Assembly: GCA_963706575.1 (NCBI GenBank)
Contig: CAVPNL010000006.1
Span: forward strand, 96,001-160,000
Direction of reading: 5' to 3'
Source: an uncultured delta proteobacterium
GTDB lineage: Bacteria > Desulfobacterota > Desulfobacteria > Desulfobacterales > JAHEIW01
DNA length: 64,000 bases
How positions within the stretch are numbered: the stretch's first letter is position 1; each line of letters opens with the position of its first letter. Below, piece by piece: positions 44,623 to 58,724 of this stretch. The notes beneath the pieces are model-generated. The model was not told the DNA's origin. It saw only the letters and a list, made by a program, of their open reading frames with translations, and did no database searches. Position numbers and translations under genes: made by a program.

Positions 44623-44976
44623 AACCGGCTTTTAGGGCATCATCATGGATAATTGCCCGAAGCTGTGTTGTGAACGGCGCGGCTGAACAATACCGCCTTG
44701 AGCTCACTGTCGAAAGGAATCGAGTAGCAGGCCGATTCAAAATGTTCACATACGCTCTTGTATAATCCGCTTTTGAATCGGTCTGCTTCTTGCCTTCGAG
44801 CGGTTTGTGATTGGAGCCGAAATCCCGCCCGCGGCATTCCGCCTATACGAAATAATTTAGCGGCATATTCAGAAATAGTCCAATTGGCAGCTTTTTTTGT
44901 TTACTAAATACGAGTATTCGACAAATCGTTTCATAACGGTTTTGATTTTTTGAAATAACTGCTGTGATCATTCAAC

Positions 44977-45288: not shown

Positions 45289-45864
45289 ATGAAAAAGGAT
45301 GATCTTACGCAGGTGAAACACATCGGTGCTTTACGAATGAAAATGCTCAACGATGCGGGGATTAAAACCATCAAACAGCTTTCTGAAATACCGTTGGAAA
45401 AGTTGATCCAGGTAGAAACCATCGGTGAACATTATGCAAAGCTGATCAAGACTGCTGTGGCGGAATCTTATGGGGAAAAACCGGTGAAATCAGCCCCAAA
45501 GGCCGTTTCCGTCAGAAAAAGGAAAACGGCGGCGGCCGATACGGTCTTAAACAACAGGATTGCGGTGCTCAAAAAACGCTTAAAACAAGCCAATGAAAAA
45601 TTAAAGCCCCTGGACAAAAAGAAGTACCTGGAATTGTATGTCGATTTTAAGAAAAGATCCAAAAGGCTTAAGGCCCATCTTGGCCGGCTAAATGAAAACC
45701 CGGGAGATCTTTCCCAAAAGGCTACAAAAAATATCATCAAAAATGCCGATGCCTTGAGTGCCACCTTGAAAAATGTGGGCAAAAAACTCAAGAAGAAAAA
45801 ATATCGACAGGTATCTCAGGAAATTCAGTCGTTTTCTAAAATGCTCAAGAAGACTCGCCCCTAA
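45289..45864 (+). CDS. Lys-rich protein with N-terminal helix-hairpin-helix motifs
   Basis: DLTQVKHIG..LNDAGIKT..L..VETIG; basic helical C-terminus; AAGGAG RBS. Confidence 0.7.
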   Translation: MKKDDLTQVKHIGALRMKMLNDAGIKTIKQLSEIPLEKLIQVETIGEHYAKLIKTAVAESYGEKPVKSAPKAVSVRKRKTAAADTVLNNRIAVLKKRLKQANEKLKPLDKKKYLELYVDFKKRSKRLKAHLGRLNENPGDLSQKATKNIIKNADALSATLKNVGKKLKKKKYRQVSQEIQSFSKMLKKTRP

Positions 45865-46587
45865 ATGACAAAAATACTATTGCTGGGGGATATCCATGCA
45901 AATTATCCGGCTTTAGAAGCGATTATAAAGTATATTCAGCCGGATCGGTTTGATTGGATCGTTAACACCGGTGATTTTACCGTTTACAGTACTTTTCCCA
46001 ACGAAACGATTCAATGGTTTCGTGAGCGCAAAAGAACCATCTGCATATTGGGCAATACGGATCGAAAAATTTTAAGAATACTCAACGGCAAGAAACTAAA
46101 AAAACCAAAAAAAAATGAAAAGCGGGTGATGTACTTTTGGACGTCTGAACATCTACATCCTGAAAATATCACCTACCTGAAATCTTTACCCGAGCAAACG
46201 GATTTTACGGCAGGCGGTTTCCGCATCGGGATATTTCATGGGACCCTGGAAGATCCGGATGAAGAGTTGTGTCCTTCGGCCTCCGAAAGTCGTTTTCGTA
46301 AACTCGCAAAGCACTCGCGCTATCAGGTTCAGATCATGGGCCATTCCCATGTGCCCTATTATCGGATTGTCGATGGGATTCATTTCGTCAATCCCGGCAG
46401 TGTGGGGCGCATGTTTGACGGTGATCCTCGGACCTCTTTTGCGATCCTTAAGGTTGCTTCCGGGAAAATAGCCGTGGAACATTTTCGGATTCCCTATGCG
46501 GTGGAAGCGGTGATCGCGGATCTGAAAAATCAAAAACTGCCGGACATCTATGCAAAAATGTTCAGGGTTGGAAAGAAATTAAATTGA
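45865..46587 (+). CDS. Metallophosphoesterase (calcineurin-like, YfcE-type)
   Basis: GDIHAN, GD, GNTD, FHG, GHSH, NPGSVG. Confidence 0.9.
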   Translation: MTKILLLGDIHANYPALEAIIKYIQPDRFDWIVNTGDFTVYSTFPNETIQWFRERKRTICILGNTDRKILRILNGKKLKKPKKNEKRVMYFWTSEHLHPENITYLKSLPEQTDFTAGGFRIGIFHGTLEDPDEELCPSASESRFRKLAKHSRYQVQIMGHSHVPYYRIVDGIHFVNPGSVGRMFDGDPRTSFAILKVASGKIAVEHFRIPYAVEAVIADLKNQKLPDIYAKMFRVGKKLN

Positions 46588-46648
46588 TCCCGGCCAAACT
46601 CGACGCTTTTCAAGAAAAGGTTCTCCACGAGAAAGATGCCGTATTGTT

Positions 46649-47630
46649 ATGAAAACGATAGAAGCAAAAGAAAATAGACAAAAAGATTCGAAAGAAAAGG
46701 TACCGGGTTCGACGGCACAGATCAGAGATGCTTTGAAGAAAGCCGAATCGGAAGTCACACGTGTCGCTCCGGAAAAACGATTACGCAAGATCGTAAAGGT
46801 TCTCAAGAAAAAGGATAAAAATGAAATTATCCAGGCGGTTTTGGAGAAATTTTATAATGCCGAGGAGTTAAAACCTTACCAGGCGGAGCTTATCAAAATG
46901 CAGCACCATCTGGAACGGACCGGAAAAAAAATGGTGATCCTTTTCGATGGCCGGGATGCCTCCGGCAAGGGTGGGACCATCCGCCGAGTAACGCGCTATA
47001 TGAATGAAAAACGATATCATGTGGTGGCACTGGGCAAACCCAATGAAAACCAGAAGACAGAACTACATATCAAACGTTATATCGAACATTTTCCTTATGC
47101 CGGAGAAATTGTTTTGTTTGACAGAAGTTGGTACAATCGAGCCCTGGTTGAGCCGGTGATGGGATTTTGCACACAGAAGCAATATAACCGCTTTATGAAA
47201 AAAGTGAATACCTACGAGCAAAATTTCCTCGAAGATGACGGCAGGACCATCCTGCTCAAACTCTATTTTTCGGTAAGCAAAGAAGAACAGGCACGGCGCT
47301 TTGATAGAAGAAAGAACGATCCCTTAAGGCAATGGAAACTTTCGGAAGTGGATTTGCAGGCCCAGGACTTGTGGGACGAATTTACCAAAAAAAAATTCAT
47401 GCTGTTAAAAAAGACGCATACCAAAAAATCGCCATGGTACGTCATCCGATCCGACGATAAGCATCTGGCCCGACGGGAAACCATGAAAGTCATCCTTAAT
47501 AGGGTGCCTTATAGAGGAAGAAGCCGCAAATTGGATTTTACCCTGGATCCCAATATTGTTATCCCGGGCGATCGGGAATTAAAGATAATGAAAAAACAGA
47601 CTGAAAAAATATGGCAAGTCCCTGGTGTGA
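46649..47630 (+). CDS. ppk2: Polyphosphate kinase 2 (copy 1); probable +1 in the A-run near 47605
   Basis: DGRDASGKGG, FDRSWYNR, WKLSEVD, SDDKHLAR; removing one A ends the protein as EKYGKSLV* at 47630 (the track reads to 47698). Confidence 0.9.
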
Positions 47631-47716
47631 TTGCTGAGATTTTTTGGTCCGGGAAAAATATTCCAGATTTCATAGATTGTGTTTTCTTCGTTAATTGATA
47701 AACCGGAGGGGGAAAA

Positions 47717-48722
47717 ATGGCGAAAAAAAAACCGCAGAATAAAAAAAGTAAGAAGAAATCCAAGGCCTTAGCAGTGAAAGAAATTGAACCAATTGCGGTC
47801 AAAGATGAAAAAGCAGAAAAAAAAGAAAAGAAGTCACCGAAAAAAGGCAAAAAACTGAAGCGAAAGTTATCCGAACACACCAGTCTTAAAAAATTTAGAT
47901 AAGAAAAAAACAAAAAAACGCCAGGCCGTTTGGGTAAAAAAATTCACCCTCGCATACGAACAGGAGTTGCATAAGCTGCAAATAGAGCTTTTGAAATGGC
48001 AAAAACATGTCATTGCCAACGAACAGCGTGTATTGATGTTATTTGAAGGCAGGGATGCCGCCGGCAAGGGCGGGACGATAAAAAGGATTATTGAACATTT
48101 GAACCCAAGGGGTGCCCGGGTTGTGGCGCTTCTAAGACCCAGCGACAGGGAACGGACGCAGTGGTATTTTCAAAGATATATTCAACACCTCCCGTCTGGA
48201 GGGGAGATCGTACTCTTTGACCGTAGCTGGTACAATCGTGCCATGGTTGAACCGACGATGGGTTTCTGCACCGATGAGGAGAATAAACGCTTCTTAAAAG
48301 ACACACCGATGCTTGAGTCCATGCTGGTCAAGAACGGAATTATTTTGTTTAAGTTCTTTTTCTCTGTTTCAAAAGAGGAACAGCTGCGCCGGTTTGATTC
48401 CAGAGAGACGGATCCTTTGAAACAATATAAAATCTCCCCGGTTGATCGAGAGGCTCAAGAAAGGTGGGATGATTATACGGTAAGAAAATTCCAGATGCTC
48501 AATGAAACGAACCGAACCATTTCTCCATGGATAATTATCCGTTCCGACAACAAGAAAAAGGCCAGACTCAACTGCATCAAACATATTCTGTCCCGAGTCG
48601 AGTATAAAGGTAAAATTCCCGTGGAGGAAATCGAGATCGATCCTGAGGTCGTGGTATCGGGCATTGATGAAATCAGATTTATGGAAGATCATTTAATGAC
48701 GGGCGTGGAATTACCGGGATAA
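47717..48722 (+). CDS. ppk2: Polyphosphate kinase 2 (copy 2) with a Lys-rich N-tail; +1 in the A-run near 47890
   Basis: GGAGG RBS at 47717; rejoined frame LKNLDKKKTKKRQAVWVKK..YEQELHKLQ; EGRDAAGKGG, FDRSWYNR. Confidence 0.88.
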
Positions 48723-48794
48723 TTCAGGTTCATCAGCACGGTTTGGATATGCCATTCAAAATTATTGACCGTGATAAGAAATAAGGAGGACGAT

Positions 48795-49088
48795 ATGCCG
48801 ATTCAAGTTATCATTAAACGCAAATGGCAGATTGATAAGCCCGAGGCACTGCTCCCGCTTCTAACTGAACTGCGTTCTCTCGCAAAAAAACAACCCGGCT
48901 ATGTTTCCGGCGAGACATTAAGAAGCCTTGATGATCCCGAAGATTACATGGTCGTAAGTAAGTGGAAGACAGTTGACGATTGGAACAAATGGTTGCAGAG
49001 TAAAAAAAGAAGGGACCTTCAGGGCCGGGTGGACTCTCTGATCGGAGAAAAAACCTTTTACGAAATTTTTGAACCCGTGAGCCACTGA
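48795..49088 (+). CDS. Antibiotic biosynthesis monooxygenase (ABM) family protein
   Basis: QPGYVSGETL..YMVVSKW..W..W..S; AAGGAGG RBS. Confidence 0.8.
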   Translation: MPIQVIIKRKWQIDKPEALLPLLTELRSLAKKQPGYVSGETLRSLDDPEDYMVVSKWKTVDDWNKWLQSKKRRDLQGRVDSLIGEKTFYEIFEPVSH

Positions 49089-49182
49089 CGGACGGTTGTC
49101 GGCATAGCACCGGCTGGGGCAAAAAGGCAATCTGAAGAATGGACGGGCGTATTATGCGGGTTAAGGAACTCTTGGATAAAAA

Positions 49183-49218
49183 AGGGCAGTCTGACGTAAG
49201 GGTCCAGATTGCCCTTGA
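49183..49218. terminator. Hairpin between convergent genes
   Basis: AAGGGCAGTCTG..CAGATTGCCCTT. Confidence 0.5.
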
Positions 49219-49243
49219 ATTTCATGCTTTTTTGAAATAACCG

Positions 49244-49507
49244 CTATTTCTTTTTTTTCGTCTTTTTTCCTTTTTTCTCCGTTTTCTTTTGTTTTTTCTT
49301 TGCTTTTACTTTCTTCTCTTTCTTTTTTTTCGTCTTTTTTCCTTTTTTCTCCGTTTTCTTTTGTTTTTTCTTTGCTTTTGCTTTCTTCTCTTTCTTTTGC
49401 TTCTTTTTCGCTTTCTTTGCCTTCTTCTTTTCCTTTGCTATCTTTACTTCGGCCTCCTCAGTTTTCTTTTCTTCCTCTTTCTTTTCTGGCTCCTTTTTTT
49501 CTGCCAT
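49244..49507 (-). CDS. Extremely Lys-rich small protein (50 of 87 residues K) with a 24-aa internal duplication
   Basis: GGGAGGAGGGG RBS before ATG; 72-nt tandem duplication encoding KEKKxKAKKKQKKTEKKGKKTKKK. Confidence 0.7.
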   Translation of the reverse strand: MAEKKEPEKKEEEKKTEEAEVKIAKEKKKAKKAKKKQKKEKKAKAKKKQKKTEKKGKKTKKKKEKKVKAKKKQKKTEKKGKKTKKKK

Positions 49508-49702
49508 AGTCCCCTCCTCCCTTTTTAATGTATTTTCATTCAGACCGACCGTTTATTGATGTTTGATCCGCCGCCGGAACGATTTATGGATATCGCTCGC
49601 GCAGCGCAGACGCTTGCGCCGCGCGTTGCTCCGACATTTTGATGATTTGATTTTAATGGGAAGCATTTTGTCATTTGACAATTTCCAACTTAAAATGGTC
49701 AA

Positions 49703-50200
49703 TCATGATTTATGCTTTTTAGGGAATTCGAAGAATTTCAATTTGCCGCAGTTCGCGTTCATATTTGCCCATGATGCAATATCTAAATTCACGCAAAATA
49801 CGCCGCAGGTTGGAATATTGCTGATCGGCTGATCAGCGATGTAATTGGCCAATCCATTTATAGCCGGGTTATGGCCGACGACCATGGCCTCATTCACGGT
49901 ATCGTCAATTTGTTTAACAACATGAATTAAGGCATTTTCACTGAATTCATAAATGGCTTCGCTGTATCGAATATTTTCAAGCGGATAATTGATCGCTGCG
50001 GTAATCATTCGGGCGGTCATGGCCGCTCTGTTTGCCGGGCTGGATATGACGAGGTCCGGTGTTACCTTTAATTTTTTAAGAAGGTTGCCCATAAAAGGAG
50101 CGTTTTTACGCCCGCGTTTGTTCAGGGGTCTTTCAAAATCGTCCAGCTTGGGATATTTCCAGCTTGATTTGGCATGTCGAACGATATAAAGGGTTTTCAT
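49703..50200 (-). CDS. sixA: SixA-type phosphohistidine phosphatase
   Basis: RHAKSSW..DFERPLNKRG, SSPANRA..T, VGHNP. Confidence 0.9.
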   Translation of the reverse strand: MKTLYIVRHAKSSWKYPKLDDFERPLNKRGRKNAPFMGNLLKKLKVTPDLVISSPANRAAMTARMITAAINYPLENIRYSEAIYEFSENALIHVVKQIDDTVNEAMVVGHNPAINGLANYIADQPISNIPTCGVFCVNLDIASWANMNANCGKLKFFEFPKKHKS

Positions 50201-50267
50201 TCTTTTCCACCGGTGGGAGATGAACGAAAAGACACAATTTAGGGTTAATCGCTGCGCAACTAGGTTA

Positions 50268-50432
50268 CTACTTTAAGGCCGTCGGTTTATGCAACCATTT
50301 TTTTTTGTCCGCTACTCTGCCGCACTTAGTGCATACGAATTGAGGATTGCGGACGATATCACTGTATTTACCCAGTTTTTTTATGATATCTTCCGACTTC
50401 CATTTGCAGAGCGCTTTTGCTTTCTTTGCCAT
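50268..50432 (-). CDS. Small 54-aa basic CxxC protein, not in the ORF track
   Basis: AAGGAG RBS; MAKKAKALCKWKSEDIIKKLGKYSDIVRNPQFVCTKCGRVADKKKWLHKPTALK*. Confidence 0.75.
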   Translation of the reverse strand: MAKKAKALCKWKSEDIIKKLGKYSDIVRNPQFVCTKCGRVADKKKWLHKPTALK

Positions 50433-50720
50433 TTTGTTACTCCTTATGGATCTAATAAATTCGCTAGCGCCTCAACTGATATTGAATCGTTTTTCATTCT
50501 TGATTAATCTAATATCCAAATACAGGTTTGTAAACGACAAATTGCGCCATCTCTTTTCTTCTGTCAGCTCAAAATTTTGGGCGAATGCCCGAAACTCTTA
50601 GCGCGGAATTATCTCCTGCATACGGTCTCTTCTTTTCGACAAGCGATTGTCATCCCTGTCAAACACGATCACGAACCCAGTCATAAGGCAAAGCCTGGAG
50701 CATCAGCATAGCGTGTGTTT

Positions 50721-51464
50721 TTAGGGTACCAGATCTTTTTCCCATTTTTCCACACTCGGGGGCGTCTCGTCCTGCAGCAGAGCCACAAATGCCAGCAGTG
50801 CTTTACGTGCATCTCCGATAGGGTAATAAAAAGCATCCCAGTGCTCGCTATCTTCGCCATCATGAGTGGGAATAACATAGTCGAATTTCCAAGCCTCCCG
50901 CAGCTCGATGATGGCGCTGGCAACCCGCTGCTCGATGTTTTCCAAATCTTTTAGCGACGGATTGATTTTCTGCCTTTTGGTGCGGCGCAGCAGCTTTCTT
51001 CGCATGATATCCGGCAGCAGTTTTCCAAGATCAGTCCGCTGTTGCGGACCTTTAAAGAATACAATCTCTTCGCGGCAAAGGGGCGCGAGAAAAATTTTAA
51101 GCGTCGGAATATCCTTTAGTTCCTTCAATTCACTGAGCTTGGCGGGTATGAAGGGGTTGCCCTCAAAAAAGGCGTCTTTGTTCTGCTCAAGGATCGCTTC
51201 AATACCGGCGATCTCGATAGCCTGTAAATCCCCCCGAACATTCGCCGACGTAAAGCCAGGCTTTTGCGCAAGTTCCTCGATTTGCGCACGCGACCGGAAA
51301 TAGTAGTCCACACCTTCCTGCTCTCCGGGTCGCGGATCACGGCTGTTGTAAAGGACGATCTGCTGCAGTCTTTCCGCCAGTTCTGGATAAAATCTGCGCA
51401 GGGCGTTATAAAGTGGACCCTTGCCGACACACGAGGGCCCCGATAACATAACGAATCGGCTCAT
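50721..51464 (-). CDS. Guanylate-kinase-like P-loop kinase (divergent)
   Basis: LSGPSCVGKG, SRDPRPGEQEGVDYYF, IFLAP; AAAGGAG RBS. Confidence 0.7.
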   Translation of the reverse strand: MSRFVMLSGPSCVGKGPLYNALRRFYPELAERLQQIVLYNSRDPRPGEQEGVDYYFRSRAQIEELAQKPGFTSANVRGDLQAIEIAGIEAILEQNKDAFFEGNPFIPAKLSELKELKDIPTLKIFLAPLCREEIVFFKGPQQRTDLGKLLPDIMRRKLLRRTKRQKINPSLKDLENIEQRVASAIIELREAWKFDYVIPTHDGEDSEHWDAFYYPIGDARKALLAFVALLQDETPPSVEKWEKDLVP

Positions 51465-51576
51465 ATGTAACTCCTTTCTCGGCTTATCTTGCTTGACTTA
51501 TGCGTCGCGTAGAGGATATTTCGCCTCACTTGTGCTTAAACCTTGATCTCGTTTCTGTTCTCACGGTCAGATAACT

Positions 51577-51752
51577 GGTTTCAGGTGTCAGACATAAATG
51601 GGTTTCAGGTTTCGGGTTTCAGGTGTCAGGGCACTGCGCGTCGCATCGAAACCTGAAATCTCTCTGGAATTGATTCAAGCCCATAGGCCTCAAGGCCAAT
51701 GGAAGGCCCTCCGGGCCAATTGCTGACACCTGAACACAGACACCTGAAACCC
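51577..51752. repeat. Inverted heptamer repeat
   Basis: tttcaggtgtcag (two or more copies) ... ctgacacctgaacacagacacctgaaaccc. Confidence 0.7.
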
Positions 51753-51754
51753 TA

Positions 51755-52507
51755 TCATCGTTGATAAAGTATGGTTTTTTGAACCTTGTCCCACAGGTTT
51801 TGATAGGACTTTGCAGCCAGTGAATTTGGTGAGTAGACGGCAACCGGTGACCGATAGATTCCCATTTTTTCAATCTGCGCTAAATAAGGAACAAAGCTTT
51901 GTAAGACGCCCCTAAAATCCTTTGACACGCTAAGCATCAGTTCCCGGTGCATTTTTTTGTGCAGATCCACCATTGAAAAAAAAGGGTAAATCTTAGCGAC
52001 ATCATATCTTTTCTTTTTGCAGAACGCTAGCAATTGGTTATACGTTCGCACAGAAAGCGTGGTGGGGATCATTGGTACAAGGGTGTAGTCAGCAGCGTTC
52101 AATATGTTTTCAGCCAGAATGCCGATGGTAACCGGACAGTCCAGAATTATTAAGCGATATTCACCCGCAAATGGATAAAGCATTTTTTTCAGCCGCTTTT
52201 TTGAATTGCCAAATTTATTATAGAGAACATCTAGCTTGCGAAGCGAGAAATCCGCCGGAAGAATATCCAGGTTTTCAAAATCGGTGCTTTTAACGCTTTT
52301 ATAGACACCTTTGGTCCCCTTGACGAATCCTTTGGGTCCGGACTTGAGTTTGGGCTTTACCCGGAAGTAGTATGAGGTCGAACCCTGGGGATCTAAATCG
52401 CAAATTAAGGTTTTGGCCCCTGTCTGAGCGGCCTGATAAGATAAGTTTACTGCAGCGGCGGTTTTGCCCACTCCGCCTTTATTGCTGTAAAGCGCCAGCG
52501 TTGTCAT
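51755..52507 (-). CDS. ParA/Soj family ATPase (orphan, no parB)
   Basis: KGGVGKT deviant Walker A, DLDPQG, ILDCP. Confidence 0.9.
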   Translation of the reverse strand: MTTLALYSNKGGVGKTAAAVNLSYQAAQTGAKTLICDLDPQGSTSYYFRVKPKLKSGPKGFVKGTKGVYKSVKSTDFENLDILPADFSLRKLDVLYNKFGNSKKRLKKMLYPFAGEYRLIILDCPVTIGILAENILNAADYTLVPMIPTTLSVRTYNQLLAFCKKKRYDVAKIYPFFSMVDLHKKMHRELMLSVSKDFRGVLQSFVPYLAQIEKMGIYRSPVAVYSPNSLAAKSYQNLWDKVQKTILYQR

Positions 52508-54063
52508 GAATTATTCTCTCGGACGTTTGAGGCGAAAAGTTCTTGGAACAGCGCCTGATTTGCGGGCGCTGCAAAGTCCGTGAAGGTTCTGGCAAACGCA
52601 TCTTTAACGGACTGTTTTTCGTGCTCCAATGTTTCAACCAGACCGCCGATTGCCACCAGCGTTTTTTTTAAGTGCTGCTGGCTGGCAGGTAATTCCGCGG
52701 TAATACTTAGGAGATATTCTTGCTGAACACAGAGATCGTTGAAGTCCCCTAGATTGTCCTGTAAGTTCTTTAGCTGTTTAATCAAGGCATTAATTTTCTT
52801 GCGAGGAAAAAGACTGGCGAAAAACTCCATCAAATATCGCAATTTTTTGCACTCAATTCTGAGGACATGCAACATCTTATCTTCGGTGTTTGCCAGAATC
52901 TTGTTGCCCGTTTTAACAACCCCCCTGTACTTCTTATAAATTCTCTGGCGTGCCAGATCAATTACGGGAAGCTCCGCATTTGATGCTGTAACCGAAACGG
53001 GCGGCGGCCTATTTAAAAATGCTTCCCAATCCTTCATAATCGTTGCATATTTTTTGGATTTCAGGCCGCGCATGACGTGCTGAAACGCTTTTGCTCGTTT
53101 TTTGCGCAAATGCCGAAACAACGGATCGATGTCATCCCGCAAGACAGCGGGAAGCATCGCTTTATATGCATCTTGGTTGAGCAGATAGACGTCCAAGTCT
53201 CTTAAAGCGTTGGAGCGTTTACCCACATATGCAAAATCTTTCTTAAATCGATCCGTTGTCCTGGTTGAAAACACATTTTTAATTTGAGCCAAGGCCGAGC
53301 GGGTCCTGCGAATCGCCACTCTGAAATCATGTAAAACCTCCGTATCCAGATCCTTTTCAAAGATGGCTTCGTTTATCCGCATGACATTCAACAAAAAGCG
53401 CAAAACAACTTTGGCGGCCTGATCCGAGCGCATTGCCGGGTCGAGTTGGATATTAACTTTGGCAGAATAACTGCCCGGTTTTTTGTCGACGACCGCCAAG
53501 GCCTTAAAATATATATCGTCTGCTTTACCCAAGGTAAACCCGGCGGCTTCGATTCGCGTGGCTAGATTGCGCGCATATTTGGGATATCCTTTGAAGGGTT
53601 TCAGCCATAAATGATTGGCCAACGCCGTTGTGTTTCTTTTACGCAGCGGGCGAATTTCTTCAAAAACCAATCGTGCTACTGTTTTTTCATCCGGGTTTAA
53701 AATGCGATATGGCGTTGATCGGGATTGGAGCTCAACGAGGTGCAAAAGGGCGCGCATCTTTATAATGGGTGCCAATTGTTCCTTTAATTCACCGGCGGGA
53801 AAATCCCAAATGAATACCGGTATCTTGCTGAATTCTACGCTATGCAAAATTTCGCATTTTGCTAGTTTCCGTAAAAACAGCTTGTTTCCGGATGAATACA
53901 AAATGAGTGATTTATTAAATAAGCGCCAGTCGAACGTATCGCAAATCGTAACCCTCTCGGCACCAGCAGGCTCTTTTTTGATGCTGTATTGTCCGGCCAA
54001 TTGGCGAATGAATTGCTTTTCATCATGGCCGCCCGGTAAGTTGAACTTCAGATTGTTAATCAT
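52504..54063 (-). CDS. CHAD domain polyphosphate-binding protein with a CYTH-like N-terminal region
   Basis: DTFDWRL; LHDFRVAIRRTRS, RDLDV, LHVLRIECKKLRY, LQDNLGDFND; stop overlaps the ParA ATG. Confidence 0.88.
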   Translation of the reverse strand: MINNLKFNLPGGHDEKQFIRQLAGQYSIKKEPAGAERVTICDTFDWRLFNKSLILYSSGNKLFLRKLAKCEILHSVEFSKIPVFIWDFPAGELKEQLAPIIKMRALLHLVELQSRSTPYRILNPDEKTVARLVFEEIRPLRKRNTTALANHLWLKPFKGYPKYARNLATRIEAAGFTLGKADDIYFKALAVVDKKPGSYSAKVNIQLDPAMRSDQAAKVVLRFLLNVMRINEAIFEKDLDTEVLHDFRVAIRRTRSALAQIKNVFSTRTTDRFKKDFAYVGKRSNALRDLDVYLLNQDAYKAMLPAVLRDDIDPLFRHLRKKRAKAFQHVMRGLKSKKYATIMKDWEAFLNRPPPVSVTASNAELPVIDLARQRIYKKYRGVVKTGNKILANTEDKMLHVLRIECKKLRYLMEFFASLFPRKKINALIKQLKNLQDNLGDFNDLCVQQEYLLSITAELPASQQHLKKTLVAIGGLVETLEHEKQSVKDAFARTFTDFAAPANQALFQELFASNVRENNS

Positions 54064-54188
54064 GATTTGATTCTTCAGATAGATATTTTTGGGACACATC
54101 CAGAAGACAAATCCTGGAAATGACGAATGATGACCGCTGAACCTGCTTGTTTCTCTGATATCCGGCTTTACTTTCGCTGAAGCCGCTT

Positions 54189-56435
54189 TTAGACCTTGGC
54201 TTTATTCTTTGATTGCTTACCGATGAGCTCGATAAACATTTCTTGTGCAGCGCATCTTTTTTTACCTTTGCGTAGGCGTCGTCTTACGTATTTACCGTCA
54301 GGCCGCATATCCCAGGCCGAGCAGTTGTCGTTTTCGTAAACTTGCACGGTCTGCTCCAACTCCAGTTTCAGTGTGGGGTCGGTAACGGGCATGATCGTTT
54401 CCATGCGGCGGTCAAGGTTACGCCGCATCCAGTCGGCTGAACCGATGAAGAATTCCGGGTCACCGCCGTTTTCAAACCGATAGATGCGTGAGTGCTCTAA
54501 AAAACGACCGAGGGTGCTGTAAACCCGTATCGTTTCGGATAGCCCGGGGACCCCCGCGCGCAGGCAGCACAGACCGCGAACATTCAGGCTTATGGGCACG
54601 CCTGCTTGACTGGCAAGGTAAAGTTCGCGAATCATACGTGCGTCCTGGAGCTGATTCATTTTGGCCCAAATACCTGAAAGACGGCCTGCCTGGCTGTGCT
54701 GCATTTCGCGATGGATCAAGTCGGTGAAGCTCTCGCGCAAATTGTAAGGAGCGACCATTAGCTTGCCGTAGCCGGGAGAAGGCGTGGCGCCTGTCAGTTC
54801 GTTGAACAAAGCCGCAACATTCGCTCCTAGTTCCGGTTCACAGCTCAGAATGCCCATGTCTTCATAAATTCGAGCAGTAATGGTGTGGTAGTTTCCGGTC
54901 CCCAAGTGAACATAGCGGCGGATGCCGTCTTTTTCTTCGCGGACGACGAGAGCCAACTTTACGTGGGTCTTCAGTCGCTCTACACCGTAGGCAACGTGAG
55001 CGCCCTCGCGCTCCAGTCGTCTGCCCCAGGCGATGTTCGGTGCCTCATCAAAGCGCGCTGTAATCTCCACCAGCACCGCTACCTGCTTGCCCTGCCGCGC
55101 CGCTTCCATCAGCGCCAGAATAATCGGCGAATCACTGCTGGTGCGATAGATGGTCAGCTTGATGGCCAGCACCTGTGGGTCAACCGCCGCACTTTGCAAA
55201 AAATGCAGTATGGAACTGTCGAAGCTGTGGTAAGGATGGTGCAATAAAATATCACCTTTGCGAATTTCGGCGAATATGTCTTCAGAATCGCTAAAATCTA
55301 AGCGTCGCAGACGGGGATGGGTTACCGGCTGATGGGGTGGATCGCGCAGTTCCGGGTAACCCTCCACCTGGAACTTCATCAAATCCGCCAGACTCATCAG
55401 ACCCTTGACAGGTTCGAGATCACTTGGATCAGCCTTGAGTTGCTCGCAGATCCAGCGTTGCAGCTTTTTGGGCATGTTAGCGCTAACCTGAAGGCGTGTT
55501 ACACCGGCAAATTTTCGGGCGGTCAGTTCTTCTGTTACCATGCCGATGAGCCGACCCGGAATAAGATCGGCATTAGGATCTTCCAAAATTGTCCGTTCCC
55601 ACGGGTCATCCTTGGCGACGCGGGTTACGCGGAAAAAATAATACTTAAGGCCGGCTGCCTTGGGGAATAGCAGTCTGAGGTTGGACGCGATCACCTGCTC
55701 CAACGGAACAAACCCTTTGCTGCCGGGCAGAGGGACCCAGCGCGGGCGGTTTGCCGGAACCTTGATGCGCACGAAGCGATTGCGTTTCTTTTTGGTTTCC
55801 TTAACCTCCACCGCAAGGTTGAGCCCCAGGTTGCTGATAAAAGGAAAGGGGTGTGAAACGTCCACGGCAAGCGGTGTCAGGATGGGCTCCACCGATTCAA
55901 GGAAATAGCGCTTCATTTGTTTCTGATGTTGGTTACTCAACTCCGTATATTCTACAATGGGGATTCCGGCCGCTTTCAAAGCGGGTCGAAGCTTATGGGT
56001 CACCAAACGAGAAACGAGGTAAGCCTGTCTATGTAATTCTTCTCGGCAGGCTTGCAGTTCCTCCTCTGGACTTAGCCCGTCGGGGGACAGTTTCTTTTTC
56101 TTTTTGCGTTTCCTTTTCTCTATCTTGCGTTTGAGCCCACCCATACGCTTCATCGCAAACTCGTCGTACAACATACCCATGATGCCAGCGAACTTGACAC
56201 GTTCAAGCAAGGGTAAATGCTTATCTTCTGCAAGTGCGAGCACCCGGCGGGCAAAGCTGAGCCAGCTTAACTCACGGTTGATGAGGGTACTTGGTGAATC
56301 AACATCGATTTTTTTCGGTTTTTCCGCGGTTCTTGATGCCGGTTCTATGGGCATATCTTTTGCAGTAGAAATGCCGGTTAACTGGCCTCCCCTGGCAATT
56401 AACGGTTTTTTGGGCTGATGCTCCTGAGGACTCAT
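54189..56435 (-). CDS. ppk1: Polyphosphate kinase 1
   Basis: NRELSWL, PLLERVKF, HPFPFISN, LHHPYHSF, ARFDEAPNI, GTGNY, GRFLEHSR, SADWMRRN. Confidence 0.96.
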   Translation of the reverse strand: MSPQEHQPKKPLIARGGQLTGISTAKDMPIEPASRTAEKPKKIDVDSPSTLINRELSWLSFARRVLALAEDKHLPLLERVKFAGIMGMLYDEFAMKRMGGLKRKIEKRKRKKKKKLSPDGLSPEEELQACREELHRQAYLVSRLVTHKLRPALKAAGIPIVEYTELSNQHQKQMKRYFLESVEPILTPLAVDVSHPFPFISNLGLNLAVEVKETKKKRNRFVRIKVPANRPRWVPLPGSKGFVPLEQVIASNLRLLFPKAAGLKYYFFRVTRVAKDDPWERTILEDPNADLIPGRLIGMVTEELTARKFAGVTRLQVSANMPKKLQRWICEQLKADPSDLEPVKGLMSLADLMKFQVEGYPELRDPPHQPVTHPRLRRLDFSDSEDIFAEIRKGDILLHHPYHSFDSSILHFLQSAAVDPQVLAIKLTIYRTSSDSPIILALMEAARQGKQVAVLVEITARFDEAPNIAWGRRLEREGAHVAYGVERLKTHVKLALVVREEKDGIRRYVHLGTGNYHTITARIYEDMGILSCEPELGANVAALFNELTGATPSPGYGKLMVAPYNLRESFTDLIHREMQHSQAGRLSGIWAKMNQLQDARMIRELYLASQAGVPISLNVRGLCCLRAGVPGLSETIRVYSTLGRFLEHSRIYRFENGGDPEFFIGSADWMRRNLDRRMETIMPVTDPTLKLELEQTVQVYENDNCSAWDMRPDGKYVRRRLRKGKKRCAAQEMFIELIGKQSKNKAKV

Positions 56436-56929
56436 GATTTCTTTTTTCTCCGATCACCACAATTGATGGAGCGCTAATTTCATGAATTGACGAAGCGGGA
56501 AATATCGAATTGGCAAGAACGCGCGTTTGATAAACTTGCGAGACGTATTGTGGATCGACTTCAGGATTGTCGCAGGTTGTGAAATCAAATTTTTTCCCGA
56601 ATCAATGCTTTATAGATGACAGTCGGATTGAATGTCAACCCAAATTAATAAAGAATGCTGGTAACCCATTAATTTTTAATCGATTTTTTGCATGCTTGTT
56701 TTTGCGTTAAGCCATATAACTGAAAATTTATAAAAATGCAGCCAGGCGTTTACTCAAAATGGGAAGCCATGCAGCATTTGACTTTCTCATGAACCTGCTT
56801 CACAATATCATTAATGCAAATTTATGATTTCGTTTCGCTGGTTGGTTTTTGGCGCCTTTAACCAAATGCCGCAAGTGCGGACAGCCGTTTATTTTAAGCC
56901 TTAAAATTTCATTTAGAGCACTTTTTATC

Positions 56930-57943
56930 ATGGAATCACAATTAAAATTTGCCGCCATTGATATCGGCTCAAATGCCGTCAGACTTTTATTGTCCGGTGT
57001 ATTTGAAGAAGCGCATTCAGCGAGTTTCAGAAAAATGTCGTTGATCCGTATGCCCATTCGCCTGGGTGATGATGCCTTTACTCAAAAATGCATTTCTGAC
57101 AGCAAAGTCTCACAACTTGTCAAGAGCATGATCGGGTTCAAACACCTGATCGAAGCCTTCCAGCCGCTGGATTATATGGCCTGTGCCACATCGGCCATGC
57201 GTGAGGCGGAAAACGGGCCGGAGATATGCAATCGAATTCTCCAAGAATCTGACATAAAAATTAATATTATTGATGGCAAAACAGAGGCGCAATTTATTTT
57301 TGAGAACAAAAGTGCAGATATGTTCGGTGGAAACGATGCCTACCTGTATGTGGACATCGGCGGGGGTAGCACGGAAATTACCCTGTTTTCACAAGGCCGA
57401 ATCATTACATGTGGTTCATTTAACATCGGAACCATACGATTACTGGAGGGCCTGGTATCAAAGGCGTATTGGAAGAAAATGAGACTGTGGCTGAAAAACT
57501 GCTCCGCTCCCTTCACTTCATTGGCGGCGATTGGAAGCGGCGGTAATATTAATAAGATATTTCGTCTGGCAAACTGTAAAAACGGTAAACCGCTTTCGGA
57601 TAACAAGATGATGAAAGTCCGCCGGTTTTTAAAGCATTTTACCGTTGAGCAACGCATCAGGGAATTAGCTTTACGGCCGGACCGAGCCGACGTCATCATT
57701 CCGGCATTGGATATTTATCTTAAGATTATGAAATGGGCCGGTATCCGTAAAATCTACGTTCCTCAAGTCGGCTTAGCCGATGGTATCGTTCGCACATTAT
57801 ATGATAGATATAAAGTTTTATCCATTTTCCTGAAAGATTTCTTTGGCCACACGAAGGCTGTCCATTGCCGCCGGAACACCACAATAAATGGCGGCCTGGA
57901 GGAGAACCTCCATGATATCGTTCTTGCTACAGCCATTGTTTAA
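56930..57943 (+). CDS. ppx: Exopolyphosphatase Ppx/GppA (short form); 3' end reads through into the opposite-strand gene
   Basis: AIDIGSNAVRL, ATSAMREA, DIGGGSTE, DRADVIIPA, GLADG. Confidence 0.9.
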   Translation: MESQLKFAAIDIGSNAVRLLLSGVFEEAHSASFRKMSLIRMPIRLGDDAFTQKCISDSKVSQLVKSMIGFKHLIEAFQPLDYMACATSAMREAENGPEICNRILQESDIKINIIDGKTEAQFIFENKSADMFGGNDAYLYVDIGGGSTEITLFSQGRIITCGSFNIGTIRLLEGLVSKAYWKKMRLWLKNCSAPFTSLAAIGSGGNINKIFRLANCKNGKPLSDNKMMKVRRFLKHFTVEQRIRELALRPDRADVIIPALDIYLKIMKWAGIRKIYVPQVGLADGIVRTLYDRYKVLSIFLKDFFGHTKAVHCRRNTTINGGLEENLHDIVLATAIV

Positions 57944-58192
57944 AGCGCCTTTTATGTGAAGCTTTACCTCGTGAGGTCGATTAAGGGCGGTGAGCATGGC
58001 TAAGTTAAGCAAGCTCCTGGTTTTTCGGTCCAGTCCTGGTCGGGCCCAGACATTACCCCAGCAGTATTCCGTAACGAGCTCCTGTAAAGGGCGACTGAAA
58101 TCGTCTGCCTGTGACATGGAAGCATCCACGTGCTCAGCACCCAGCACCTCCCGGCGAATTTGGAGTCCTTTTTCGAAAAGTTCATTCGTCAT
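57818..58192 (-). CDS. 4-carboxymuconolactone decarboxylase-like protein
   Basis: GLQIRREVLG, EYCWGNVWARPGLDRKTRS, YCGVPA. Confidence 0.88.
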   Translation of the reverse strand: MTNELFEKGLQIRREVLGAEHVDASMSQADDFSRPLQELVTEYCWGNVWARPGLDRKTRSLLNLAMLTALNRPHEVKLHIKGALNNGCSKNDIMEVLLQAAIYCGVPAAMDSLRVAKEIFQENG

Positions 58193-58724
58193 CGTTATTT
58201 CCCTTCTCTGTTGACATACTTTTTTCTTCAAGCGCTTTCATCAAATTCAAAGCGTTATATTTCATCCGGTCCTATTCTTTATCTTTTCCGCTATTTTTTT
58301 ATTTCATATCAGTTAGTTATTTGTTCCGTCAAGCCTTAAATCTCGTTGCAAAGTTACTACTTTTCTCAATAAATCCAGACCTGAAATCACTCCGGGATAA
58401 TGGTGACCTTCGATTTTAATCTACCCAAGGAAATCACCTTTAAAATCAATAAGATTGACTTCAGAATTTATTATGTGGTATCAAAATTTGAAAAATTACT
58501 TACACATTATCTATTCTCGATCTTAGCGGAACTTTTTATCCTGCAATGTCCAATAATCCGCTGAGCCTCTTCTATAATCGGTAAATACTGCCGCCTTGCG
58601 GGATACTTTTTTCTGCTAATTAAATTATTTCCTAATAAAATGGTAAGGGAGGTGATGCTTGTCGATGTAGATAGTTCGAGATGCTAAGATCTTAAATCAG
58701 GAATAAAGCAAAAAGGAGATAAAA

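Follow-up and report, generated by a model that had tools for sequence, protein, structure and literature searches.

The polyphosphate island

Thirteen contiguous genes at positions 45289 to 57943 of a 64,000-nucleotide stretch of an uncultured Desulfobacterales genome (the window) form a conserved polyphosphate (polyP) island of the Desulfobacterales and not a chance neighbourhood. They include a gene for a CHAD-domain protein directly followed by a gene for a ParA/MinD-family ATPase. An earlier note had listed the thirteen genes and read them as a full kit for building and positioning polyP granules. All 13 open reading frames (ORFs) were confirmed at the place, in the order and on the strands that it gave. 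Its gene names are backed by Pfam and NCBIfam, except that the helix-hairpin-helix (HhH) match lies under its cut-off, the guanylate kinase (Gmk) match is partial, and an 87-mer and a CxxC microprotein have no family.

The assembly comprises 5.67 Mb and is 92% complete. The named relatives nearest to the island ParA (84-94% identical) belong to Desulfobacterales metagenome genomes. The ppk1, ppx, CHAD, sixA and two ppk2 genes have no second close copy in the genome, so the whole polyP enzyme set sits in the island. The genes are arranged in at least three transcription units and do not form a single operon. Promoter and terminator scans gave counts at chance level (23 against 21.0 and 14 against 17.5), and no tRNA or Rfam match lies within the window. 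Contigs from RNA runs span 30, 29 and 17 of 30 island bins; contigs cannot show transcription, and these were not used as evidence.

On the minus strand, ppk1 (54189..56435) encodes a full PPK1 whose N-terminal domain contains an inserted short Lys/Arg run. The CHAD gene (52504..54063, minus) has its likely start at 54063, the longest ORF starting at 54099, and its stop codon overlaps the start codon of parA (51755..52507, minus) in the sequence ATGA. The short Ppx/GppA exopolyphosphatase gene (56930..57943, plus) is divergent from ppk1 and starts at about 56930. Its similarity to relatives stops at 57818, past which its 3' end is unlike theirs; the ppx of relatives ends about ten codons past this point. 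A minus-strand ORF of the carboxymuconolactone decarboxylase family (57818-58231) overlaps the extended ppx 3' end.

Two ppk2 genes lie on the plus strand. Copy A (46649..47630) is of the single-domain type, and copy B (47717..48722) has an N-terminal arm of about 80 Lys-rich residues. Against TIGR03707 (cut-off 301.8) the pair scores 354.7 bits and 295, the latter just under the cut-off. Each gene contains one surplus base, which near 47600 lengthens the assembled ORF of copy A to 47698 and near 47890 (47888-47893) splits copy B. The surplus bases are absent from a 96%-identical metagenome locus and from the contigs of three of four runs, the fourth having no coverage of the sites, and the frameshifts are therefore most likely assembly errors. 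Programmed frameshifting was considered and rejected on the evidence of the same locus and run contigs. In the 96%-identical relative, copy B is 334 amino acids long.

Short interspersed repeats occur at 51570-51760, 49570-49650 and 44720-44800, of which the genome holds about 20, 19 and 7 copies, and resemble repetitive extragenic palindromic (REP) sequences or miniature inverted-repeat transposable elements (MITEs). The repeat at 51570-51760 has very high depth and many joints in run contigs.

Association of CHAD with ParA

A genome scan with the island ParA gave 143 confirmed relatives, and the best 80 of these were used to anchor a comparison of loci. CHAD adjoins parA in 74 of the 80 loci, and in 72 of the 74 that have at least 400 nucleotides upstream. 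In one of these 72 (L076) CHAD lies downstream of parA, and 31 of the 72 pairs share the 4-nucleotide overlap of the window. The loci come from Desulfobacterota, Poribacteria, Chloroflexota, Calditrichota, Deferribacterota and Pseudomonadota, and CHAD is the only parA neighbour common to several phyla.

Further genome samples, from the class, the Bacteroidota phylum, the Pseudomonadota and the Chloroflexota, were drawn irrespective of neighbourhood. Eight of 120 class genomes contain a ParA match at E 1e-40 or better; all six copies with at least 45% identity adjoin CHAD, and two with 35-37% identity have no CHAD match. ParA was found in 48 of 201 genomes of the Bacteroidota phylum, with CHAD directly upstream in 28 of the best 30 loci; these genomes are probably mostly green sulfur bacteria and thus one related group. 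The ATPase is also present in 61 of 251 Pseudomonadota genomes. The Chloroflexota sample is uninformative, with ParA in the centre genome only (1/201). In a tree of 75 ParA rows, from which 25 close Desulfobacterales rows were left out, 16 of the unlinked copies fall into a sister clade with support; unlinked members also occur in the clade of the window copy, which has 53 rows and is likewise supported.

Two observations on the surroundings of these genes may be added. The host genomes of the sister-clade copies from one Pseudomonadota group (L181-L184, L190-L201) mostly carry short CHADs elsewhere, and the neighbours of these ParA genes are ones that we take, from their translations, to be rnfH and truA. 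In one family a gene for a 53-amino-acid ribbon-helix-helix protein (L084:8957-9118, L085:8693-8854) directly precedes CHAD-parA and is divergent from ppx. It could encode a regulator or a ParG-like partner.

The CHAD protein

The 519-amino-acid CHAD protein matches PF05235 with 189 bits (cut-off 25.6) and, having the basic cavity residues as well, belongs to the phosins. Its nearest solved structure is CtCHAD from Chlorobium tepidum (E 4e-96 over the CHAD domain). The polyP-binding residues of CtCHAD are H253, R256, R260, R296, R418 and Y419 (PMC6537752), which correspond to H245, R248, R252, R288, R409 and Y410 here and are invariant in 49 of 49 sequences. With every mapped residue retained, the protein is predicted to bind polyP, in agreement with the earlier note. 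The N-terminal region of about 200 residues looks CYTH-like (language-model features 0.94; 28 of 30 Atlas matches are CYTH). It matches no Pfam family, none of 49 members has a Pfam CYTH match, and a profile comparison with the neighbouring CYTH genes gave no match either.

The ATPase

ParA/MinD proteins are recognised by a Walker A motif of deviant form, KGGxxK[S/T], with a signature lysine (PMC9178275). The island protein (AAA_31/ParA) has this motif together with the Walker A' and B aspartates and belongs to the ParA/MinD ATPases, in a distinct subfamily. Residues K10, G11, G12, G14, K15, T16, D37, D39 and D123 are invariant in 49 sequences, and the signature Lys10, Lys15, Asp37, Asp39 and Asp123 also in a second set of 30.

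The chromosomal Soj of this genome is encoded on contig C8 and is 26% identical to the island ParA, which forms a separate long branch, has no parB neighbour and is flanked by CHAD and the Gmk-like gene; it is not a ParA/Soj protein of a ParABS system. It is not a MinD-like membrane binder either: in the 49 sequences, compared by eye, no C-terminal amphipathic helix of the MinD type is conserved, conservation stopping at W239 and the tails varying. Nor is it part of a McdAB system, as the thirteen genes and their flanks include no McdB homologue or carboxysome gene, and McdA structures rank far under Soj among the matches of the island ParA.

Non-specific DNA binding by Soj involves R189 and R218 (PMC3778016). 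The corresponding positions were read from an alignment with the Soj of this genome. At the R189 position 33 of 49 sequences have Arg, the window ParA has His, and the next residue, Lys184, is invariant, as are Arg49 and Arg219. Net charge ranges from +3 to +24 in the 49 sequences and from 0 to +11 in the Bacteroidota-phylum set; it is +21 for the island ParA and 0 for the genome's Soj.

Lysine-rich proteins of the island

Of all gene blocks in the genome, the island has the highest lysine content. A ranking of 3810 nine-ORF windows from a crude ORF set puts it in the top two places for lysine, and by net charge it is the second region of the genome. The paralogues outside the island, Soj and a second phosphoesterase, are neutral in charge.

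Proteins of E. coli bind polyP through Lys-rich stretches, and the PASK motif has been defined as 20 residues with 75% or more D, E, S or K and a Lys (PMC12345225). Two of the 10 ORFs with a PASK motif among 6131 are in the island. One is the gene of the 87-amino-acid Glu/Lys microprotein (49244..49507, minus), which is 57.5% Lys and contains the strongest PASK motif (43 windows) and the most Lys-dense stretch of the genome. The other is ppk2 copy B, where the motif is in the N-terminal arm (6 windows); this arm recurs in relatives. Of the 80 loci, 19 contain a Lys-rich microprotein with at least 50% Lys in 45 residues. The 87-mer, with a single Pro and without KPAA, is not a member of the AlgP/PhaF type. 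Histone-H1-like Lys/Ala-repeat proteins, nearer to AlgP in make-up than the 87-mer, are encoded elsewhere in the genome (near C4 102295, C2 169803 and C9 195182), unlinked to the island.

The 54-amino-acid CxxC microprotein (50268..50432, minus) is basic (26% Lys) and has a conserved Cys near its N-terminus, the CxxC motif and a His. Like the 87-mer it matches no Pfam or NCBIfam family, nor does it match a PHROG family, and both genes are preceded by a purine-rich ribosome-binding site. The CxxC family is broader than the island, with two further copies in the genome. In one of four distant loci the gene lies between ppk1 and sixA-ppx; the other three show no polyP gene in the vicinity.

Other accessory genes

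The first gene (45289..45864, plus) encodes a 191-amino-acid protein of net charge +31, with an HhH-like N-terminal module, a disordered linker and a Lys-rich four-helix C-terminal domain, from an uncharacterised family tied to polyP islands. Its model (predicted local distance difference test 77) has a small helical N-terminal domain, the linker and four long helices. The HhH assignment is weak: HHH_5 scores 19.2 bits (cut-off 27) and both motifs are without their first glycine. Atlas clusters of the protein have HHH_5 in 16-75% of members, and the best PDB match is the HhH-like N-terminus of archaeal eL32 (E 0.001). The family is small, with 31 representatives at E 1e-30 or better. Three of 120 class genomes and three of 250 genomes from the phylum contain it, in all six cases next to CHAD or ppk2; one of the six contigs is locus L039 of the parA set. 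The possibility that the C-terminal bundle is half a CHAD domain found no support, the profile probability being about 1%, as against 52% for two CHAD halves compared as a control.

The adjoining gene (45865..46587, plus) encodes a YfcE-like metallophosphoesterase (Metallophos_2/YfcE) with a basic insertion. Phosphomonoesterases usually carry GNH(D/E) where this protein has a near-invariant GNTD, which hints at diester or anhydride substrates. The ABM-domain protein (48795..49088, plus) has many paralogues in the genome; this copy follows ppk2 in relatives. The SixA-like histidine phosphatase (His_Phos_1; 49703..50200, minus) scores under the sixA equivalog cut-off.

A divergent protein of guanylate kinase fold is encoded at 50721..51464 on the minus strand. 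The Guanylate_kin match covers only residues 2-103, and the protein is not a canonical guanylate kinase (PF00625/TIGR03263), scoring 60.8 bits against a cut-off of 160 and having a P-loop that ends in GKGP instead of GK[S/T]. It is 77-90% conserved across 36 homologues and has a basic lid, and its changes fall at positions aligned with the region of solved guanylate kinases that binds guanosine monophosphate (GMP). On the pattern of archaeal PPK3, the protein may use polyP or a substrate other than GMP. All three relatives that hold a Gmk-like gene also have a canonical Gmk, making the former a second paralogue there, and replacement of the housekeeping enzyme is rejected for these relatives. 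In the 92%-complete window genome the Gmk-like protein is the sole PF00625 match. Homologues with at least 73% identity are in the island at 40 of 43 metagenome loci; for more distant ones the figure is 4 of 37.

The accessory genes were counted in the 26 Desulfobacterota loci with at least 8 kb downstream of parA. Besides CHAD (26), these loci contain sixA (24), ppk2 (23), CxxC (22), phosphoesterase (21), stand-alone CYTH (20), HhH (19), ABM (15), ppk1 (14), Gmk-like (7) and ppx (4) genes. Gene order and orientation vary among the loci, and the accessory genes stay with the polyP genes through inversions and reorderings. The linkage elsewhere that the earlier note proposed to check by co-occurrence is thus seen in the loci of relatives. 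The same comparison does not support its full kit as a single obligatory unit: the Lys-rich, HhH, phosphoesterase, CxxC, ABM, Gmk-like and ppk2 genes were found in none of 21 parA loci assigned by title to other phyla, some of which are short, and CHAD islands without ParA exist. The island is two-layered, with a CHAD-ParA core and a lineage-specific accessory layer.

Other genes recur in these islands. Between the CxxC and Gmk-like genes, the window keeps a 29-codon remnant (the first 28 codons; 50535..50621, minus) of a conserved 200-amino-acid gene with no Pfam family, which in full (L001:1795-2397) is present in 15 of the 80 loci and precedes the CYTH gene in relatives. A stand-alone CYTH gene (L008:11640-12844) lies inside the island in 41 of 80 loci. 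A sodium/phosphate (Na/Pi) cotransporter with PhoU domains (L031:9374-11176) and a DUF498 gene (L004:4433-4798) are present in 12 and 13 of the 80 loci, and neither was found in the window genome.

Proposed role of the island

The explanation to which we incline, while giving it slightly less than an even chance, is that a CHAD-coupled ATPase organises polyP granules in space through a non-canonical surface, and that polycationic proteins probably add a coat. PPK1 would make polyP, the two PPK2 enzymes would spend it on nucleotide phosphorylation and Ppx would degrade it, as the roles of their families suggest. The CHAD protein would coat the granule and probably recruit the ATPase encoded directly behind it, whose ATP cycle could determine where granules sit and how many form. 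ParA would probably grip a matrix, either DNA or polyP itself, by a basic surface other than the canonical one of Soj. The PPK2-B arm, the 87-mer and the CxxC and HhH proteins probably bind the polymer electrostatically and could be targeting tags or coat. The island is modular, with CHAD-ParA as a portable core and the polycationic genes as an add-on of the Desulfobacterota, and each layer can occur alone. Of all its parts, the ParA coupled to CHAD lends itself best to testing and likely acts on granules.

Several points weigh against this explanation. The Soj R218 position is Gln in the window ParA and the R215 position is Tyr; at the R218 position neither Arg nor Lys ranks among the five most frequent residues in the first or the second aligned set, and all 30 Bacteroidota-phylum copies have Glu or Asp. 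An acidic residue at this position of Soj abolishes DNA binding. With the R218 equivalent lost, a canonical nucleoid ratchet is doubtful, and some other basic surface may serve. The Pseudomonadota ParA adjoins CHAD at 7 of 63 places among the matches listed (22 weak CHAD matches being unlisted), and set against 72 of 74 loci this makes the coupling strong but not universal. It follows a two-domain ppk2 at 4 of 30 Pseudomonadota loci, and 18 further regions of 7-14 kb with no adjacent CHAD or ppk2 contained no polyP gene except one weak phosphoesterase match. In three places (G041, G537 and L146) the gene directly behind CHAD is another island gene and not parA, and no ParA of the subfamily was found in genomes G041 and G537, which are 96% and 100% complete. 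A further genome, G477, is uninformative on ParA loss since its CHAD is cut by the contig end. Most loci are from related metagenome genomes and are not independent. The island has a G+C content of 0.43, as against about 0.49 in its flanks, and AT-richness raises lysine content, so the lysine enrichment is confounded. In Synechococcus elongatus, polyP spacing is independent of McdA, its only ParA-family ATPase (PMC13556221). While gene identities, CHAD-ParA coupling, ATPase motifs, polyP-binding residues and lysine enrichment are direct observations, all functional claims proceed from guilt by association.

Alternative explanations

ParA could instead be a non-spatial ATP switch, which, by binding CHAD or PPK2, would gate the turnover of polyP by energy charge, with granule position set otherwise. 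We regard this as unlikely, though it would account for the lost R218 equivalent and the lack of a conserved C-terminal membrane helix; the Pseudomonadota parA genes that directly follow a two-domain ppk2 instead of CHAD also fit it, and the CYTH-like domain of the CHAD protein could be what is regulated. It fits less well with the Arg at the R189 position in 33 of 49 sequences, the invariant Lys184, Arg49 and Arg219 and the positive net charge in 49 of 49, which together point to a conserved polyanion-binding surface, and characterised ParA/MinD ATPases mostly position cargo (PMC11407121). An explanation with no organising role at all is that the island is a co-regulated phosphate-storage cluster, in which the enzymes and CHAD act on polyP, while ParA and the small basic proteins either came along by joint inheritance or bind polyP in a general way. 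Clusters of ppk, ppx, sixA and CHAD are common (PMC6537752, PMC10892726, 10.1101/2024.08.28.610084), relatives add the Na/Pi cotransporter and CYTH genes, distant Gmk-like genes are mostly unlinked (4/37 linked), as are three of four distant CxxC loci, and phosin deletions are reported often to alter granules little (PMC13556221). The overlapped CHAD-parA junction that recurs across phyla, and the accessory genes that remain in the island despite inversions and reorderings, make this explanation improbable.

The kit of the earlier note, likened there to carboxysome McdAB and to PhaM, would have ParA ride the nucleoid canonically, with CHAD as adaptor, the HhH protein as DNA tether and the Lys-rich proteins as nucleators, all required together. 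All the parts do occur together in the window and its close relatives, the modelled HhH protein has the two-ended build that a tether might have, and AlgP already exemplifies a basic granule spacer that binds DNA (PMC9239181). The tight coupling of parA to CHAD and the polycationic nature of the island bear out a part of that proposal. The rest is undercut by the position equivalent to R218, which is not basic, by the accessory genes, which were found in 0/21 loci outside the Desulfobacterota, by islands that lack ParA, and by an HhH match that is under the Pfam cut-off and without the first glycine of both motifs. The 87-mer has no KPAA repeats of the AlgP/PhaF type, and the AlgP-like Lys/Ala-repeat proteins are encoded elsewhere, unlinked. 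A complete McdAB-like kit is therefore an overreach and very unlikely. A bolder form of the CHAD-coupled ATPase, for which we see some chance but which we would not expect to hold, is that CHAD and ParA are the missing ATP-driven positioner of polyP granules, working without the canonical DNA grip and perhaps on a polyP matrix, that the whole is an organelle island of the Desulfobacterales with Lys addressing tags, and that the Gmk-like protein is a new polyP-using kinase like PPK3.

Comparison with known systems

We know of no energy-driven machine that places or sizes polyP granules. How polyP granules are organised at the molecular level is described as unclear (PMC13556221), and whether granule positioning costs ATP is not known (PMC13052382). 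A literature short of most subscription journals yielded neither a proposal nor a test of a granule system built on ParA and CHAD. The question of ATP is directly testable since CHAD-ParA is a two-gene unit and a relative of its CHAD, from a culturable green sulfur bacterium, has been solved and binds polyP. The island also supplies new candidate granule proteins (the HhH/four-helix protein, the 87-mer, the CxxC and Gmk-like proteins and the PPK2 arm) and suggests that Desulfobacterales of sediments cycle polyP. If the metabolic explanation alone is true, the polyP cluster is an ordinary one, though unusually complete.

The gene order ppk-parA-CHAD is already published, without a function, for Acidithiobacillus. 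There ppk1, a parA and a CHAD gene, in the order ppk1-parA-(CYTH-)CHAD, likewise form a conserved cluster (PMC10892726, PMC6416229), and the passages of these papers on the cluster annotate parA as a partition gene and give it no polyP role. The window island adds two ppk2 genes, ppx, sixA and six accessory genes. The island CHAD shares all six cavity residues with the CtCHAD phosin (PDB 3E0S, 6QV7, 6QVA; PMC6537752), the solved part of which is without the N-terminal domain. The passages of that paper on CtCHAD draw no link to ParA, and its locus figure may show one.

McdA/McdB resembles the island pair in having an orphan ParA-type ATPase with intact ATPase motifs beside a candidate cargo-binding protein. 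The candidate partner in the island, however, is a 519-amino-acid CYTH-like/CHAD protein, whereas McdB is small and has a basic N-terminus; a condensate of inorganic matter would be the cargo, and one canonical DNA-binding residue is lost. In S. elongatus the positioning of polyP is not the work of McdAB (PMC13556221). AlgP of Pseudomonas aeruginosa, the one known polyP spacer in reviews, and PhaF and PhaM are, like the small island proteins, basic, low-complexity or two-ended granule proteins (PMC9239181, PMC13052382). The 87-mer differs from AlgP and PhaF in being Glu/Lys-rich, with no KPAA repeats or folded domain, and the HhH protein is folded and helical and has no detected likeness to PhaF, PhaM or AlgP; AlgP, moreover, needs no known ATPase. 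By analogy, the CHAD-coupled ParA would at most resemble a cargo-positioning system, and it is a member of neither the McdAB nor the AlgP/PhaF type. The Gmk-like protein has a parallel in archaeal PPK3, which is encoded in a ppx-sixA-CHAD operon (10.1101/2024.08.28.610084): both are paralogues of nucleoside monophosphate kinase fold in a polyP cluster, with the housekeeping kinase encoded elsewhere. PPK3 derives from thymidylate kinase, whereas the island protein derives from guanylate kinase and its use of polyP is putative.

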